The notes under the pieces are model-generated. The model worked only from the letters and a program-made list of their open reading frames with translations, had not been told where the DNA came from and did not search any database. From the NCBI GenBank assembly GCA_903824785.1, contig CAIJYD010000135.1:1928-65927 (forward strand): DNA of 64,000 nucleotides, written 5' to 3'. Source of the stretch: an uncultured Bacteroidota bacterium. Lineage in GTDB: Bacteria; Bacteroidota; Bacteroidia; Bacteroidales; VadinHA17. A program made the position numbers and the translations under genes. Numbering within the stretch: position 1 is the stretch's first letter; the number at the start of each line of letters is the position of its first letter. This document shows positions 55,320-61,566 of the stretch, one piece after another.

Positions 55320-55408
55320 GGAGAGATGGCAGAGTGGTCGAATGCGGCGGTCTCGAAAACCGTTGTTCGCCTTCCGGCGAACCGGGGGTTCGAATCCCTT
55401 TCTCTCCG
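55320..55408 (+). tRNA. tRNA-Ser (anticodon CGA)
   Basis: Manual fold. Acceptor GGAGAGA/TCTCTCC. 3-bp D stem. Anticodon stem GCGGT/ACCGT with loop CTCGAAA (CGA). Long variable arm TTCGCC-ttcc-GGCGAA. T loop GGTTCGAATCC. Discriminator G. CCA is not encoded. Confidence 0.9.
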
Positions 55409-55421
55409 CAACACCTGAACT

Positions 55422-57206: not shown

Positions 57207-58013
57207 CTATAGAAATACAGCAATCTGGCCATGCTTTGGAATAGCTCTGTATATTATTTTAGCATCAGCACTTGGAATTTTAATCTTTATGTAAGGCTGA
57301 TATTCAGGTACCTTAAAAGCAGCGATCTCTTTCAAAGCAGCTTTAGTACTGATTAAACGATGACGCAGGTCGAACAGAAACAGATCCTTACTATCGCCAT
57401 GTTTAATTTCTTCGCTCTGGTACACTATTATTTTTATACCTCTATCTGTTTCAAAGATGTAATTTACAGGTTCATAAAAAGCTGTGTCGGGTATTGCATC
57501 GGGTTTAAATTCAGAGGTGTCTTTAGGTGCAATTTTCAGTATAATTGGTATTTTAGCTATTGAAGATGTGTCGCTTACAATCGTCAGAGGTGAAGATAAT
57601 AAGGAAGTAATAACAAATTCATCTCCATTGGTAATTATTTTACTGGCTTCAATTTCATTTATAGGTGCTGAATGAACGACAATACCACTTATTTCGATAT
57701 TAATCATCCTTTCTGACATATTTAAAGTAAGATAAACAGAATCGGTTTCAGCCATCAGAACCTTCGACTGCAAGTATGCCTGCTCTTTGAATAATGAGAG
57801 GAAAGTTGAATCAGAAGTAATATTTTTGGGAAGCTTGAGTTTTTCATAATTTGCAGAACCATATTTAGCTGATATTTCAGCCATCTTTTTGGAAGGACTC
57901 ATCATTTCCATTATACCATAATAGACAGCAAATGCTATAGCAGCCAGGATAACAATGGAAATTAAGATGATTACAAATAGATGAATTGGGTTTTTCCGAG
58001 TTTCTGCTTCCAT
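57207..58013 (-). CDS. Hypothetical single-pass membrane protein, last gene of the L,D-transpeptidase operon
   Basis: I used the ATG at 58013 (MEAETRKNPIHLFVIILISIVILAAIAF), 16 nt after the stop of the upstream gene. The longer track ORF would overlap that gene. No family is recognisable. Confidence 0.6.
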   Translation of the reverse strand: MEAETRKNPIHLFVIILISIVILAAIAFAVYYGIMEMMSPSKKMAEISAKYGSANYEKLKLPKNITSDSTFLSLFKEQAYLQSKVLMAETDSVYLTLNMSERMINIEISGIVVHSAPINEIEASKIITNGDEFVITSLLSSPLTIVSDTSSIAKIPIILKIAPKDTSEFKPDAIPDTAFYEPVNYIFETDRGIKIIVYQSEEIKHGDSKDLFLFDLRHRLISTKAALKEIAAFKVPEYQPYIKIKIPSADAKIIYRAIPKHGQIAVFL

Positions 58014-58029
58014 AATAAGTACCTCCGGG

Positions 58030-58839
58030 TCAGAATATATATACTTTAGAGCCAATATTGAGAGTATTAAATACAATCTCAAGGTCTTTATCACCAAGCC
58101 TTACGCAACCATGAGTAACAGGCATACCCATAAGACGTTTATAAATTGTTCCATGAATCATATAACCATCAACCAAATCGAGCGCATAATCTCCCAGAAC
58201 ACCCTCCTCCCATCGTGAAGGATGGTCTTTTGGGGGCACAGGAAGGCCCTGTTCAATAAAGTCCCAGTCAGATCGGTGCCAATATGGATGCTTTCTCTTC
58301 CCTGTTATTGAAAATTTTCCTTTGGGAGTTTTAAACAAATAAGTTTTTTTCTCTGTCTGAAGCATTTTATTGGCCCCCGAACTGCATAACCCTTCTCTTA
58401 CAAGCATCTTGTTTTTATAAAGGAAAAACTTATTGTCGGTAGTATTTATGACGATATATGATTGTCCGGAAGTATAAGTACTGTATTTTCTCGACAAGCG
58501 TTGAATCTCTTTCGACATCCGTACAATCTGTTTCTTGTAATCTGCATCCTTTTTAAATTCTGAGCTGGCTGAGATTTTGGACTTTCTGCCAGATGAGATT
58601 TCCTGAAGGTTTGGTGCCAGGTAAAGTACAAAAGCGAAGAGAAGAATAAATGTGAGCAGTAATGCAAATACCATCAGTAGATAGCGTAGCAAAAAAGAGA
58701 TGCCTTTTTCCTTCATTGGAGGAGTAGTCAAGGGACTTTTTGAAGAACTGATATCGGTGTTATCATTCAAAGTCCGGTCAACACCAGTATTTTCATCCTC
58801 TCGCAGCATGCCTTCATTTTTATCATTTTCATTTTCCAT
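58030..58839 (-). CDS. Membrane-anchored canonical YkuD-type L,D-transpeptidase
   Basis: Acidic N-terminal tail and a TM segment, then a YkuD domain with YMIHGT...GMPVTHGCVRLGDKD (His...(S/T)-x-G-C-(I/V)-R catalytic motif). Confidence 0.85.
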   Translation of the reverse strand: MENENDKNEGMLREDENTGVDRTLNDNTDISSSKSPLTTPPMKEKGISFLLRYLLMVFALLLTFILLFAFVLYLAPNLQEISSGRKSKISASSEFKKDADYKKQIVRMSKEIQRLSRKYSTYTSGQSYIVINTTDNKFFLYKNKMLVREGLCSSGANKMLQTEKKTYLFKTPKGKFSITGKRKHPYWHRSDWDFIEQGLPVPPKDHPSRWEEGVLGDYALDLVDGYMIHGTIYKRLMGMPVTHGCVRLGDKDLEIVFNTLNIGSKVYIF

Positions 58840-58848
58840 CTCAGATAA

Positions 58849-59961
58849 TTAACGGCTCATCACATTTTCCAGATCAACCATTGATCCTACAATTGTAACC
58901 GGAGTACCCACTTTTGCGATCCGGAAAACCACATCCATCTCCTTGTCAGTAAGGGCCACGCAACCTTCCGTCCAGTCAACCCCTTTTCCACCGTCACCAT
59001 GGATCTCAATAAGGCCGCCTATTTTTGCTGTACGCGGGAGAGAACCAAGAGCAATTTCTGATCTGAATTTCTCCTTATCCTCCTCGTTCGGATAGTCTAA
59101 TAAGAGAGCCTTATAGTATTTTGTACGATTCCGGTCGATTTTTTTTGTTATCTTATACATTCCTTCCGGAGTAGCCAGATCGCCTTTTACTCTCTTATCT
59201 CCAACCCAGTTTTTTCCCAGTTCAGCTTCGAATTCATATTTTTTTGAACCTGCCTGATAGATAAAAAATTTCCGTGAAAATTTATCAATAATTATTGAAT
59301 AATCGCTATTTTTTTTCGATTCATTTATTGTTTTATCGGCCCATTTCTTCCAGACGGTATATGACTTAAAATAGTTCTTAAGATTTGCTGATGCATTTTC
59401 GTATGAAGATGTAAGCAGGTATTCAGAATCGGTGGTTTTTCTGTTTGCCTGAATATACTGACCTTTTTCATATGCTATCTGAGCCTCTTCCAGGATCATT
59501 TTTCCCTTGGAGATCCGGTTTCTGATCTCGGCACTTAAAGGATAGGTCGTGAATAATGCATCAATTTCTGAAACAAGATTATTAAGTAATCCTATTTCCT
59601 GTTTCAGTTTTATTTTCAGATTTGATGTACTGCTTATTGAATTTTCAGTTGCTTGTCCGGCTTTTTTTGCCGAGAGTTCAGCAAACATGATAACCTTCTC
59701 ATAATCTCTGAGATAGATAAATTTTTTATTCTCCCTCTGCCAGTTAACCATTGCAGAATCGTAATTTACTTTTGCCTGGTTAAAAAGCTTTTTAGAATAG
59801 GTATCTGCTTTACTTGTTACTGCCTTTGAAAGAGTTTGACGGGCATGTTCCATCTCACCAACAGGAGGCTTTGGTGTAAGACGAATTAATAGTAAGACAA
59901 TTAATGGAACAGTAACTGCCAGTACACTAAAAACAAGAACATTTTTCCAAAATTTTTTCAT
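58849..59961 (-). CDS. Membrane-anchored YafK/DpaA-like L,D-transpeptidase-fold protein with an N-terminal helical (DUF4398-like) region
   Basis: KGDLATPEGMYKI...DYPNEED...IEIHGDGGKGVDWTEGCVALTDKEM. From memory, E. coli YafK reads GDFKSPEGFY...FPNAYD...MIHG...SIGCYAMT. The Arg after the catalytic Cys is replaced by Ala in both. The start is the ATG at 59961 or 59979. Confidence 0.75.
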   Translation of the reverse strand: MKKFWKNVLVFSVLAVTVPLIVLLLIRLTPKPPVGEMEHARQTLSKAVTSKADTYSKKLFNQAKVNYDSAMVNWQRENKKFIYLRDYEKVIMFAELSAKKAGQATENSISSTSNLKIKLKQEIGLLNNLVSEIDALFTTYPLSAEIRNRISKGKMILEEAQIAYEKGQYIQANRKTTDSEYLLTSSYENASANLKNYFKSYTVWKKWADKTINESKKNSDYSIIIDKFSRKFFIYQAGSKKYEFEAELGKNWVGDKRVKGDLATPEGMYKITKKIDRNRTKYYKALLLDYPNEEDKEKFRSEIALGSLPRTAKIGGLIEIHGDGGKGVDWTEGCVALTDKEMDVVFRIAKVGTPVTIVGSMVDLENVMSR

Positions 59962-59980
59962 TGTATTCTGTCGCAACATT

Positions 59981-60007
59981 AAAAAAAACCCCGGGAACTT
60001 CCCGGGG
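59981..60007 (-). terminator. Strong hairpin plus T8 between the lipoprotein gene and the YafK-like gene
   Basis: CCCCGGGAA-c-TTCCCGGGG (59989-60007) is followed on the minus strand by eight T (59981-59988). It lies 31 nt after the lipoprotein stop. Confidence 0.7.
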
Positions 60008-60037
60008 ATTTTATAATATTAAGAAAATAATTAAGAA

Positions 60038-60634
60038 TTATTTCCTGCCTTTTACTTTTGCGATTGCTTCTTTAAGTTCGGTATTAATACCAACTGCTCT
60101 TTCTTTTGCAGCTTTAACTTTATTGTCAGCATCCATGTAGGTACCTTTATCATACAAACCCTGAGCTTCAACAACAGAAGCTTCGATTGTAACCATTTCG
60201 GTTTTAATCTGCTCAAGAACAGCTGCTCCTTCTTTTCCTCTTGGAGCTTTTTTCATAAGAGTTGTGTTCTCTTCAATAACAGCTTTGATCTCTGTAAGTA
60301 AAGTCTCAACTTCTTTCTTAACTTCTTCTTTTTTAACAGCAGCATTGGCAGCAACCTGATTAGCAAGAGCTAATGTAGCATCAAGCTTAAGTTTAGCAGG
60401 GCCAAATTTCTTAAATAATTTTGATTCCTGAGCAGCAACGTCAGCCATAATAGCAGTCATTGAATCCTGTACAGCTGCAAATTCAGCAGGTACATAAACT
60501 GCAGCTTCAGCAGTTTTGGCAGCTTCGATAGCTGCATTAGTTGCATCAATTTCAACCTGTGGTTTTTTGCCACAACTAGAAAGGACAGCGACCATTACTA
60601 TAGCAGCTAATCCCATTAAAACTTTGTTCTTCAT
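60038..60634 (-). CDS. Ala/Lys/Glu-rich helical lipoprotein (DUF4398-like) ending in ...KVKGRK
   Basis: I used the ATG at 60634. MKNKVLMGLAAIVMVAVLSSC gives a lipobox. The mature protein is 178 aa with no further Cys. Motifs AAVYVPAEFAAVQ and EAQGLYDKGTYMDA. The C-terminal residue is Lys. Confidence 0.75.
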   Translation of the reverse strand: MKNKVLMGLAAIVMVAVLSSCGKKPQVEIDATNAAIEAAKTAEAAVYVPAEFAAVQDSMTAIMADVAAQESKLFKKFGPAKLKLDATLALANQVAANAAVKKEEVKKEVETLLTEIKAVIEENTTLMKKAPRGKEGAAVLEQIKTEMVTIEASVVEAQGLYDKGTYMDADNKVKAAKERAVGINTELKEAIAKVKGRK

Positions 60635-60715
60635 TTTTCTAATCTTTTTAATACTTTGTTTATTTAACAACTTCTGAAAAATTTAAAATTCTTTTTCGAT
60701 TTTCAAATTACGGTG

Positions 60716-60723
60716 CAAATATA
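60716..60723 (-). promoter_or_regulatory. Candidate -7 box (TATATTTG on the minus strand) for the lipoprotein operon
   Basis: The plus strand reads CAAATATA, 82 nt upstream of the ATG at 60634. Confidence 0.4.
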
Positions 60724-60939
60724 TTAAAATTATGAAACTTAGCAACATAAAATTAAAAAAATCTTAATTTTCTTTAAAAATATGTTATAAAACAGAGGCC
60801 GGATTTTTCTCTGATCAGTATGAATAACATAAATTAATGGAAATTTTCAAGTACATTGCATTCACAAAATGATCATTTGAGTAAATGTCTTATAGTCTGA
60901 AAAAGAAATACTTAAAAATTAAATCAAAGTCATTGCATA

Positions 60940-61566
60940 ATGAGATCGCTATTATTGTTTATCCTGAGATTGATTCTTCTAATAATATTAATGATTTTTA
61001 ATGGCTGTGACATAGTAACCGTTGAAATAGTATCTCCTCCTCTTCCGGTACATCAGAAAGATGAAAAACCTGATACACCTGTACCCCTTGGTTGCATCAG
61101 GGGCTATTTCGGAGACTATTACAAAACGTTTACAGATAATATTGAAAACGTTCAGCCTGTTGATAGTTTTTCGAATATTTACTTTTATGGCAGCTGCAAT
61201 AATGCTCTGAAACAGATTAATCTTAGAAGGCGCAATTCGGATTTTGTTCTTGCCATCTATATCATGGGTTATTCTTTGGATACATTGCCAGCATCACTTC
61301 CTGTGACTTCGGAGTATGGAAAGTTTTCTGAGATACAGTATTATAAATCCCAGGATTGGAATAGTACTTCTCCCGGGCACTATTCTCTGGACAACTTCTA
61401 TGGGAACAGTGTTTTTATTACTGACATATCAGATGATATAGTTACCGGCACTTTCGGAGGTATTTTAAAATCACCTGCCGGAGAGAGCGTACGTGTAACT
61501 GAAGGAGAGTTTAAATTAAAGCTCTTCAGAAAATATTTGCCCTGCGCCCAGGGTAATGGAAAATAA
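60940..61566 (+). CDS. Hypothetical lipoprotein
   Basis: Signal peptide with MIFNGC lipobox and a Pro-rich linker. No recognisable family. It ends with a ...IVTGTFGGILKSPAGESVRVTEGEFKLKL beta-rich module. Confidence 0.6.
   Translation: MRSLLLFILRLILLIILMIFNGCDIVTVEIVSPPLPVHQKDEKPDTPVPLGCIRGYFGDYYKTFTDNIENVQPVDSFSNIYFYGSCNNALKQINLRRRNSDFVLAIYIMGYSLDTLPASLPVTSEYGKFSEIQYYKSQDWNSTSPGHYSLDNFYGNSVFITDISDDIVTGTFGGILKSPAGESVRVTEGEFKLKLFRKYLPCAQGNGK

Follow-up and report, generated by a model that had tools for sequence, protein, structure and literature searches.

Lpp-type covalent tethering is a textbook mechanism, which in Escherichia coli involves an abundant lipoprotein (Lpp), YkuD transpeptidases of the Cys/Arg type (LdtA–C), and an arginine-less YkuD hydrolase, DpaA (also named YafK or LdtF). 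To our knowledge, how the envelope layers are coupled in Bacteroidota and in most uncultured diderm phyla, beyond Pal and OmpA, is not known. Lpp itself occurs in only four orders, all of them within Gammaproteobacteria (bioRxiv 10.1101/2021.05.31.446380), and the hallmark of DpaA is a YkuD fold with a catalytic Cys and with Ala or Asn, not Arg, two residues on (PMC8263019). According to a review of December 2025, in which Bacteroidota are unmentioned and the attached proteins are proteobacterial only, the attachment of proteins by L,D-transpeptidases (LDTs) is not limited to a terminal Lys, as internal lysines, penultimate lysines, and N-termini are used too, and none of these proteins is known as co-encoded with its own transpeptidase and a dedicated hydrolase (PMC12729407). 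Here, we analysed an operon of four genes, named g1 to g4, that starts with a lipoprotein gene (g1) followed by two YkuD genes (g2 and g3) and a fourth gene (g4), located in a contig of an uncultured Bacteroidota bacterium of the order Bacteroidales (CAIJYD010000135.1, positions 1,928 to 65,927); this whole stretch of 64,000 nucleotides is referred to below as the window.

A previous reading of the window, made from its letters and open reading frames (ORFs) without database searches (hereafter, the sequence-only reading), had proposed this operon as a candidate tether like Braun's lipoprotein, with the substrate, the attaching enzyme, and the detaching enzyme encoded together, and knew of no such system in Bacteroidota; likewise, no described counterpart of the module in this phylum was found in the literature that we searched. 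Our comparative analysis showed that the module is conserved and dedicated, combining a lipoprotein that is predicted to be rod-shaped and probably abundant with three YkuD-fold proteins, one of the transfer type, one of the hydrolase type, and one probably dead. The interpretation that we favour, with a probability of around 40%, is that of a module for attaching the lipoprotein to peptidoglycan and detaching it again by means of a lysine at the tip of the g1 rod.

Conservation of the gene order

The four co-oriented genes of the minus strand that the sequence-only reading had recognised were confirmed as ORFs at the same coordinates (57207-60634), with intergenic gaps of 76, 9, and 16 nt. 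From the first to the last gene of the operon, they are the following:

60038-60634, minus strand: g1, a 198-aa lipoprotein with lipobox LSSC (Cys21), a predicted all-helical DUF4398-related rod, the invariant Lys134, and the basic tail KVKGRK
58849-59961, minus strand: g2, 370 aa, with an N-terminal membrane anchor, a g1-like rod (residues ~30-215), and an arginine-less YkuD domain (221-357; Cys334, Ala336, Lys256, Tyr282, Glu319)
58030-58839, minus strand: g3, 269 aa, a canonical L,D-transpeptidase of the YkuD type (HGCVR), whose catalytic domain follows a cytoplasmic N-terminus, a transmembrane (TM) segment, and a helical linker
57207-58013, minus strand: g4, 268 aa, a probable pseudoenzyme in which a TM anchor and helices are combined with a YkuD-like beta domain devoid of cysteine

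When one genome per species was scanned, relatives of g1 were found at 54 loci, most of them from metagenome-assembled genomes (MAGs) of uncultured Bacteroidales, with a minority labelled as other Bacteroidota (a few, such as Cytophagia and, as the nearest named lineage, Breznakibacter of the Marinilabiliales at locus L046), as Aminicenantes (several), or as Eubacteriales or uncultured bacterium (a few). Among the species genomes with enough flanking DNA, g2 was found downstream of g1 in 49 of 49 and g3 in 46 of 46, whereas g4 was detectable in 38 of 43. The order g1-g2-g3 was also kept in Aminicenantes, where identity falls to 33–40%, and an identical gene order was observed in two still more distant members of the g1 family from metagenomes; for the distant members P0265 and P0258, the contigs were too short to inform on the neighbourhood. 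As the arrangement recurs in every related genome with sufficient flanks, it is not the product of chance, and the orthologous operons collected here uphold the treatment of g1 and the YkuD genes as one unit, outside this genome and in other phyla too.

The NupC gene downstream of the module is also syntenic in Bacteroidales. In one MAG (MFD02416.bin.1.219), three copies of the module were observed on three contigs (loci L008, L010, and L011), with a truncated g4 and a frame-broken nupC in the first of them; they may reflect true paralogy, strain variation, or errors in the assembly of long reads. In addition, in a distant member (L059, 434-3532, minus strand, and also L060), a gene for a class A penicillin-binding protein (PBP) of 1032 aa, with transglycosylase and transpeptidase domains, lies divergently upstream of the lipoprotein/YkuD module, which places the module in a peptidoglycan-synthesis neighbourhood.

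Sequence and predicted fold of the four proteins

Translation of the g1 ORF agreed with the lipobox LSSC, the lone Cys, and the KVKGRK terminus read earlier: the protein starts with MKNKVLMGLAAIVMVAVLSSC, is rich in Ala, Lys, and Glu, has a single Cys (Cys21, invariant in 129 of 129 relatives), and ends in KVKGRK-stop. On the other hand, the Lpp-like C-terminal Lys, whose lack of conservation the sequence-only reading had named as refuting its proposal, did not hold among orthologues. Lys is the last residue in 96 and Arg in 22 of the 120 relatives nearest to the window protein (84% identity or more); Lys is also terminal in 56 (43%) of 129 near-full-length representatives of 50%-identity clusters (R in 32, other residues in 41), and in 17 of the 52 operon-bearing species genomes, with R in 25 and F in 10. 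One operon-bearing member of the family ends in ...IETARGMVSAGTAAH (...SAGTAAH), with zero Lys in its last 15 residues, and yet two YkuD genes and a fourth gene lie behind it. Conservation was seen instead for the basic K/R character of the tail and for a Lys a few residues before the end: K193 is Lys in 82% of the relatives overall, and a Lys was found within the last six residues in 52 of 52 species loci.

In an alignment of 79 sequences, down to 30% identity, the only invariant residues of g1 were the lipid-anchor Cys21 and Lys134. The latter sits in the best-conserved motif of the protein, A130-P-(K/R)-G-K134-E-G (A130-P-R-G-K-E-G in the window). Lys and Arg swap freely at position 132 and in the tail, whereas position 134 is never Arg, which fits a chemical rather than an electrostatic role for Lys134. 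The end of the protein differs between sublineages: one of them (the orthologues at L005, L007, L009, L015, L019, L022, and L031) carries a Pro/Ala-rich C-terminal extension ending in KKK (e.g., ...PAPAPAPKKK), and another ends in ...ARIKF or ...ARIRF. Thus, the g1 tail is lineage-variable and basic, at times resembling a flexible linker tipped with lysines. The lipoprotein export signal of Bacteroidota is acidic, and as the residues that follow the Cys in g1 (GKKPQ) are basic, its identification as a surface-exposed lipoprotein was rejected.

Regarding its family, the earlier label of "DUF4398-like" is right for the family of g1 but not for the window protein itself, which misses PF14346 (DUF4398). 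A match to this domain was detected in 26 of the 79 relatives at E ≤ 0.01, a single one of them (P0248, 35.7 bits vs. 27.9) above the gathering threshold, and it covers residues ~27-112, corresponding to the N-terminal bundle. No function for DUF4398 was found in the literature searched, which offers passing mentions only. The AlphaFold2 (AF2) model of g1, built on the 79-sequence family alignment, reached a pLDDT of 93.2 and a pTM of 0.81, with helices H1 to H5 at residues 26-41, 49-70, 78-129, 134-162, and 166-197. These helices fit two three-helix bundles that share a central helix of 52 residues, of which ~22 pack with H1 and H2 and ~30 with H4 and H5, in a rod of ~78 Å. The structure prediction suggested by the sequence-only reading, which had asked whether the lipoprotein is a coiled coil or a helical bundle, therefore yielded a monomer modelled as a five-helix double bundle, not as a coiled coil. 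In this model, the H3-H4 loop with K134 and the C-terminal tail would both be at the rod end opposite the lipid anchor. No significant solved homologue was found by sequence, as a profile of the g1 family, run against every sequence in the PDB, picked up nothing beyond weak coiled-coil noise (best E 0.007), nor by fold, as a Foldseek search of the model against the PDB gave nothing at E ≤ 0.001.

A second copy of this fold was detected in g2. In an HHalign comparison, the family of mature g1 proteins and residues 30-185 of g2 could be aligned over 154 columns (probability 98.7%, E 3.6e-16), with both aligned regions beginning directly after the membrane anchor and with a deletion of 7 residues in the g2 copy exactly at the invariant GK loop of g1. 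The helical region of g2, which contains EEAQIAYEKGQYIQA, also weakly matches DUF4398. Judged from the alignment, the helical, non-catalytic part of g2 and the whole of mature g1 are paralogues, and g2 would consist of a hydrophobic N-terminal anchor followed by a rod like that of g1 and then by the catalytic domain. At an Aminicenantes-type locus (L051, 7568-8680, plus strand), the N-terminus of g2 has the sequence ...LLFGHNACNTPP, possibly a lipobox in place of a TM anchor, in which case g2 of this locus would be a lipoprotein like g1.

In g2, a YkuD domain (Pfam PF03734) was recognised at residues 221-357 (E 1e-16), with WTEGCVALT at its active site, in which Ala does replace the Arg after the catalytic Cys (C334-V-A336), as the sequence-only reading had pointed out. 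The motif G-C-[IV]-[AS/G]-L is conserved in the orthologues, with an invariant Cys, with Ala or Ser at position 336 in 40 of 40 full-length Bacteroidota-type proteins, and with Gly at the equivalent position in the shorter Aminicenantes type. Comparison of the diagnostic residues taken from the DpaA structure paper (PMC10653827) revealed that Lys83 of DpaA, which binds meso-diaminopimelate (meso-DAP), corresponds to the invariant K256 of g2; that the Lys-packing Tyr109 corresponds, within (K/R)YYKA, to Y282, present in 39 of 40 orthologues; and that the position of Met133 in DpaA and of Trp158 in Csd6 is occupied by an invariant Glu319. The DpaA-specific cleft residues Gln86, Arg108, Lys130, and Tyr131 were unmatched in g2 (K259, K281, G316, and L317), only the change of Arg108 to Lys being conservative. 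The aromatic D-Ala pocket (Tyr133 and Trp158 in Csd6) was not found in g2 either, which presents L-I-E-I-H-G vs. G-I-W-I-H-G in Pgp2 and Csd6.

In database comparisons, g2 showed 27% identity over 96 residues with E. coli DpaA (BLASTP), and some of its orthologues are annotated as YafK by JGI. Among proteins of solved structure, three LD-carboxypeptidases, namely Csd6, Bd1075, and Pgp2, were the nearest to its catalytic domain in sequence (E 6e-6 to 7e-5), followed by the DpaA-like chain 8ikr (E 1.4e-3), so g2 is at least as near to these three enzymes as to DpaA. These comparisons place g2 on a branch of its own among the arginine-less YkuD proteins of the hydrolase type (DpaA, Csd6, Pgp2); it is not an equivalog of DpaA, and it is not a typical D-Ala carboxypeptidase either. 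The earlier description of g2 as YafK/DpaA-like is therefore retained in part: the Arg is absent, Lys83 and Tyr109 of DpaA are kept, and the Trp of LD-carboxypeptidases is missing, but a DpaA equivalog it is not, with a score of 37.2 bits vs. a cut-off of 365.

Analysis of g3 left its reading as a TM-anchored canonical YkuD enzyme unchanged, as its PF03734 domain (E 4.7e-19, 69.9 bits vs. a gathering threshold of 23.4) includes the motif THGCVR, and VTHGC[VI]R is kept in 46 of 46 orthologues. For g4, previously an "unknown single-TM protein", a single TM segment was found, neither Pfam nor NCBIfam gave a matching family, and the sequence contains no Cys; however, a fold can now be predicted for it. 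With an AF2 model (pLDDT 80.5) based on an alignment of database homologues only, nearly all of the top 50 matches in the PDB by Foldseek were L,D-transpeptidases (probability up to 1.00, E from 4e-3). Lacking a cysteine, the protein is most simply explained as a YkuD-fold pseudoenzyme, and it appears to be a catalytically dead third member of this fold in the operon; it would be the first YkuD-fold pseudoenzyme of which we are aware. A fourth gene of g4-like size was also present in the Aminicenantes-type loci, sharing an N-terminal strand motif and a C-terminal AK-x-IY-x-A motif. The homology of this gene in Aminicenantes and in L059 to g4 is suggested, and probable at best, with co-linear motifs and an hhalign score of only E 0.004 and 9% probability.

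Expression signals and weighing of the readings

Two putative expression signals were located on the strand of the operon:

60716-60723, minus strand: candidate -7 promoter box TATATTTG (Bacteroidota-type TAnnTTTG), ~82 nt upstream of the g1 ATG, with GTTG 19 nt further upstream
59981-60007, minus strand: terminator-like hairpin CCCCGGGAAGTTCCCGGGG followed by T8, with an 8-bp stem (7 GC pairs) and a 3-nt loop, between g1 and g2

The box is the sole TAnnTTTG on the minus strand within 57207-60940 and, extended as TAnnTT(T/C)GC(A/C)CCG, it recurs ~80–92 nt upstream of g1 in many orthologous loci; its function as a promoter is putative. Across the window, TAnnTTTG was not enriched (67 vs. 65 expected), and a scan for sigma-70 promoters was uninformative (16 sites vs. 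14.8 expected). The GC-rich hairpin with T8 had already been noticed in the sequence-only reading, and in most Bacteroidales loci, the g1-g2 gap contains an element of the form CCCCGGG...CCCGGGG plus T5-9, variable in stem and loop, that probably acts as an attenuator. No promoter box, nor room for one, was found between this terminator and g2, and as only ~20 nt are left there, g2 to g4 probably rely on read-through. In Aminicenantes, g1 and g2 abut without a terminator. In addition, g1 showed the strongest codon bias of the 47 long ORFs in the window (effective number of codons, Nc, 40.2; 44.4–58.2 in the others) and the slowest evolution in the operon, with a median identity of 77% vs. 63, 56, and 48% for g2, g3, and g4, respectively. 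It looks like a highly expressed, high-copy structural protein, and the earlier proposal that g1 is expressed far above the enzymes gains support from the terminator in most Bacteroidales loci and from its lowest Nc.

A scan of the 54–64 kb region against Rfam detected only a tRNA and a sub-threshold Leu_leader match (59981-60047, minus strand; 26 bits vs. 50), which coincides with the terminator hairpin and was judged to be a chance hit. The tRNA, a tRNA-Ser (CGA) at 55320-55409 (plus strand), lies between a ferredoxin-like gene and nupC, and the short ORFs listed there are tRNA artefacts. At 60940-61566 (plus strand), divergent from g1, a 208-aa probable lipoprotein (...IFNGC) is encoded, with a weak, sub-cut-off match to the NCBIfam Riean_0653 family (E 1.4e-5); it was not conserved beside the module in the other loci checked.

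According to the attach/detach reading, g1 would be an abundant lipid-anchored helical rod, handled by three YkuD-fold proteins anchored in the inner membrane. The canonical Cys/Arg L,D-transpeptidase g3 would form an acyl-enzyme with a peptidoglycan tetrapeptide and pass the meso-DAP carbonyl to the epsilon-amine of a lysine at the distal tip of g1, the hydrolase-type g2, with its own g1-like rod, would undo the bond made by g3, and the cysteine-less g4 would be a non-catalytic binder or adaptor. The acceptor would not necessarily be C-terminal, as it could be either the invariant Lys134 of the AP(K/R)GKEG loop or the last conserved lysine of the tail (K193 and its neighbours); there is precedent for attachment at non-terminal lysines in LimB27 (Lys21), Lpg1810 (with a Lys-Thr end), and OutB (PMC12729407). 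In favour of a tether count the synteny of g1, g2, and g3 across phyla, the invariance of Lys134, and the constant pairing of a transfer-type (g3, HGC[VI]R) with a hydrolase-type enzyme (g2, G-C-[IV]-[AS/G]-L). Likewise, the codon bias, the promoter box of its own, the terminator, and the slow evolution of g1 count for a high-copy structural role, and the lack of the D-Ala-pocket Trp in g2, together with the retention of the DpaA residues Lys83 and Tyr109, counts for a detaching rather than an LD-carboxypeptidase role. It is also plausible that the g1-like rod before the catalytic domain of g2 serves as a substrate-docking device. In its most specific form, a covalent tether outside Proteobacteria (in Bacteroidota and Aminicenantes), with a DUF4398-type rod linked through the internal K134, a co-encoded transpeptidase, a hydrolase that recognises the fold of its substrate, and a YkuD pseudoenzyme as adaptor, we consider this proposal rather unlikely.

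Several of our observations speak against attachment. The C-terminal Lys that defines Lpp is not conserved in the g1 family, the swapping of Lys and Arg in the tail suggests a charge interaction there, and an invariant lysine in a loop can equally be structural or a protein–protein contact. The geometry of the tip was deduced from helix lengths and not from coordinates, and g1 would have to be located in the outer membrane, in phyla for which sorting between outer and inner membrane is not predictable. Regarding the enzymes, of the four cleft residues specific to DpaA, g2 has one at most, and its best NCBIfam match, DpaA/YafK/LdtF (NF040599), is the one that stays so far below the equivalog cut-off; for g3, the NCBIfam and PDB matches are all at ~30 bits, and as no sequence feature separates protein-attaching from cross-linking LDTs, its substrate class cannot be read from the sequence. 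Finally, the abutting g1 and g2 of Aminicenantes are more easily reconciled with a stoichiometric complex than with a substrate that greatly outnumbers its enzyme.

Such a complex is the basis of an alternative that is nearly as likely as the tether and accounts for almost as much, in which g1 would serve as a regulator or scaffold without a covalent bond; it would pair with the rod of g2, to which it is homologous, and possibly also with g3 and g4, and would position or activate YkuD enzymes that act on peptidoglycan only, in a way comparable to LpoA/LpoB for PBPs or NlpI for hydrolases. Here, g3 would produce 3-3 cross-links, g2 would trim or edit stem peptides, and the basic tip of g1 would contact peptidoglycan or the membrane electrostatically. 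The homology of g1 to the N-domain of g2 agrees with this, since paralogous helical domains often form heteromers, as do the Lys/Arg interchange in the tail, the tight, terminator-less junction of g1 and g2 in Aminicenantes, the class A PBP divergently adjoining a distant locus, the position of the LD-carboxypeptidases Csd6, Bd1075, and Pgp2 as nearest solved relatives of g2, and the presence of the pseudoenzyme g4, which suggests a multi-subunit enzyme complex. However, the Bacteroidales terminator and the strong codon bias point to a large excess of g1, which is unusual for a regulator, g2 lacks the conserved Trp of the D-Ala pocket, and a regulator does not require the strict invariance of Lys134, which is never Arg. 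Even if non-covalent, this would be the first lipoprotein-dependent LDT complex.

The proposal of the sequence-only reading in its strict sense, with g1 joined through the epsilon-amine of its C-terminal Lys, g3 as the analogue of LdtA–C, and g2 as the orthologue of DpaA, appears improbable to us. The ...GRK end of the window protein, the 96 K-ending proteins among its 120 closest relatives, the lineages with a Pro/Ala-rich extension ending in KKK, and DpaA as best NCBIfam match of g2 would all fit it, but R or F is terminal in 35 of 52 operon-bearing genomes, a residue other than K in 57% of the 129 diverse relatives, and the member ending in ...SAGTAAH keeps the operon. Moreover, there is no homology to PF04728, the model is a monomeric helical bundle and not a trimeric coiled coil, and g2 scores 37 bits where 365 are needed. 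Family-wide, the strict C-terminal-Lys rule is already contradicted by these conservation data, attachment through another lysine (K134 or K193) being possible. Least probable of all is that g1 is adjacent yet independent, a separate, highly expressed lipoprotein gene that happens to be upstream of an operon for peptidoglycan remodelling. The promoter box and the strong terminator that g1 has to itself would be expected in such a case, and the syntenic NupC gene indicates that relatives as close as these generally keep the gene order of the region; however, the g1-g2-g3 order persists at 30–40% identity in other phyla despite differing flanks, no promoter box separates the terminator from g2, and both genes have a domain in common.

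Comparison with described systems

For the g1 rod, the nearest fold resemblance that looked meaningful was to the N-terminal helical domain of BB0323 of Borrelia burgdorferi (TM ~0.42–0.54, probability 0.92), which we take to be an envelope lipoprotein with a peptidoglycan-binding LysM domain; with a Foldseek E of 0.5, not significant, and without sequence similarity, this is a resemblance only. Compared with DUF4398 (PF14346), an uncharacterised helical domain of bacteria, g1 adds a second bundle, which bears the invariant GK loop. If the attach/detach reading is true, the module would provide the first functional context for this domain.

The enzyme g2 has in common with Csd6 of Helicobacter pylori, Pgp2 of Campylobacter jejuni, and Bd1075 of Bdellovibrio the GDxATPxGxY motif and the absence of the Arg. 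It differs from them in the replacement of the D-Ala-pocket Trp by Glu319 and in the addition of an N-terminal anchor and rod. Csd6, Pgp2, and Bd1075 carry a C-terminal NTF2-like domain, for which g2 has no room, as its YkuD domain spans residues 221-357 of 370.

Other envelope proteins attached by LDTs include LimB27 of Coxiella (Lys21), Lpg1810 of Legionella (C-terminal Lys-Thr), OutB of Dickeya, and beta-barrel outer membrane proteins of Brucella and Coxiella; in contrast to g1, all those reviewed are proteobacterial and none is DUF4398-like (PMC12729407).

The system of E. coli presented above is made of the same three kinds of parts, and DpaA and g2 have in common Lys83, Tyr109, the YYKA motif, and the Ala at Cys+2. 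The length predicted for the g1 rod, ~78 Å, compares with a distance of ~85 Å between outer membrane and peptidoglycan in E. coli. Nevertheless, g1 and Lpp are unrelated in sequence and fold, the former being modelled as a DUF4398-related double helical bundle and the latter being a trimeric coiled coil; no match of g1 to PF04728 was found at E ≤ 0.1, and no Lpp appeared among its solved-structure matches. Whereas the parts are dispersed in E. coli, the three of them are here in one operon, the enzymes are membrane-anchored, the hydrolase-type g2 bears a copy of the lipoprotein fold, and an additional pseudo-YkuD protein, g4, is present.

In conclusion, the parts of this module are of known kinds, and their combination and architecture are new, making the operon a directly testable candidate for an envelope-coupling system outside Proteobacteria and, if the attach/detach reading is true, an example of a new architecture in which a substrate-like rod is fused to a hydrolase.

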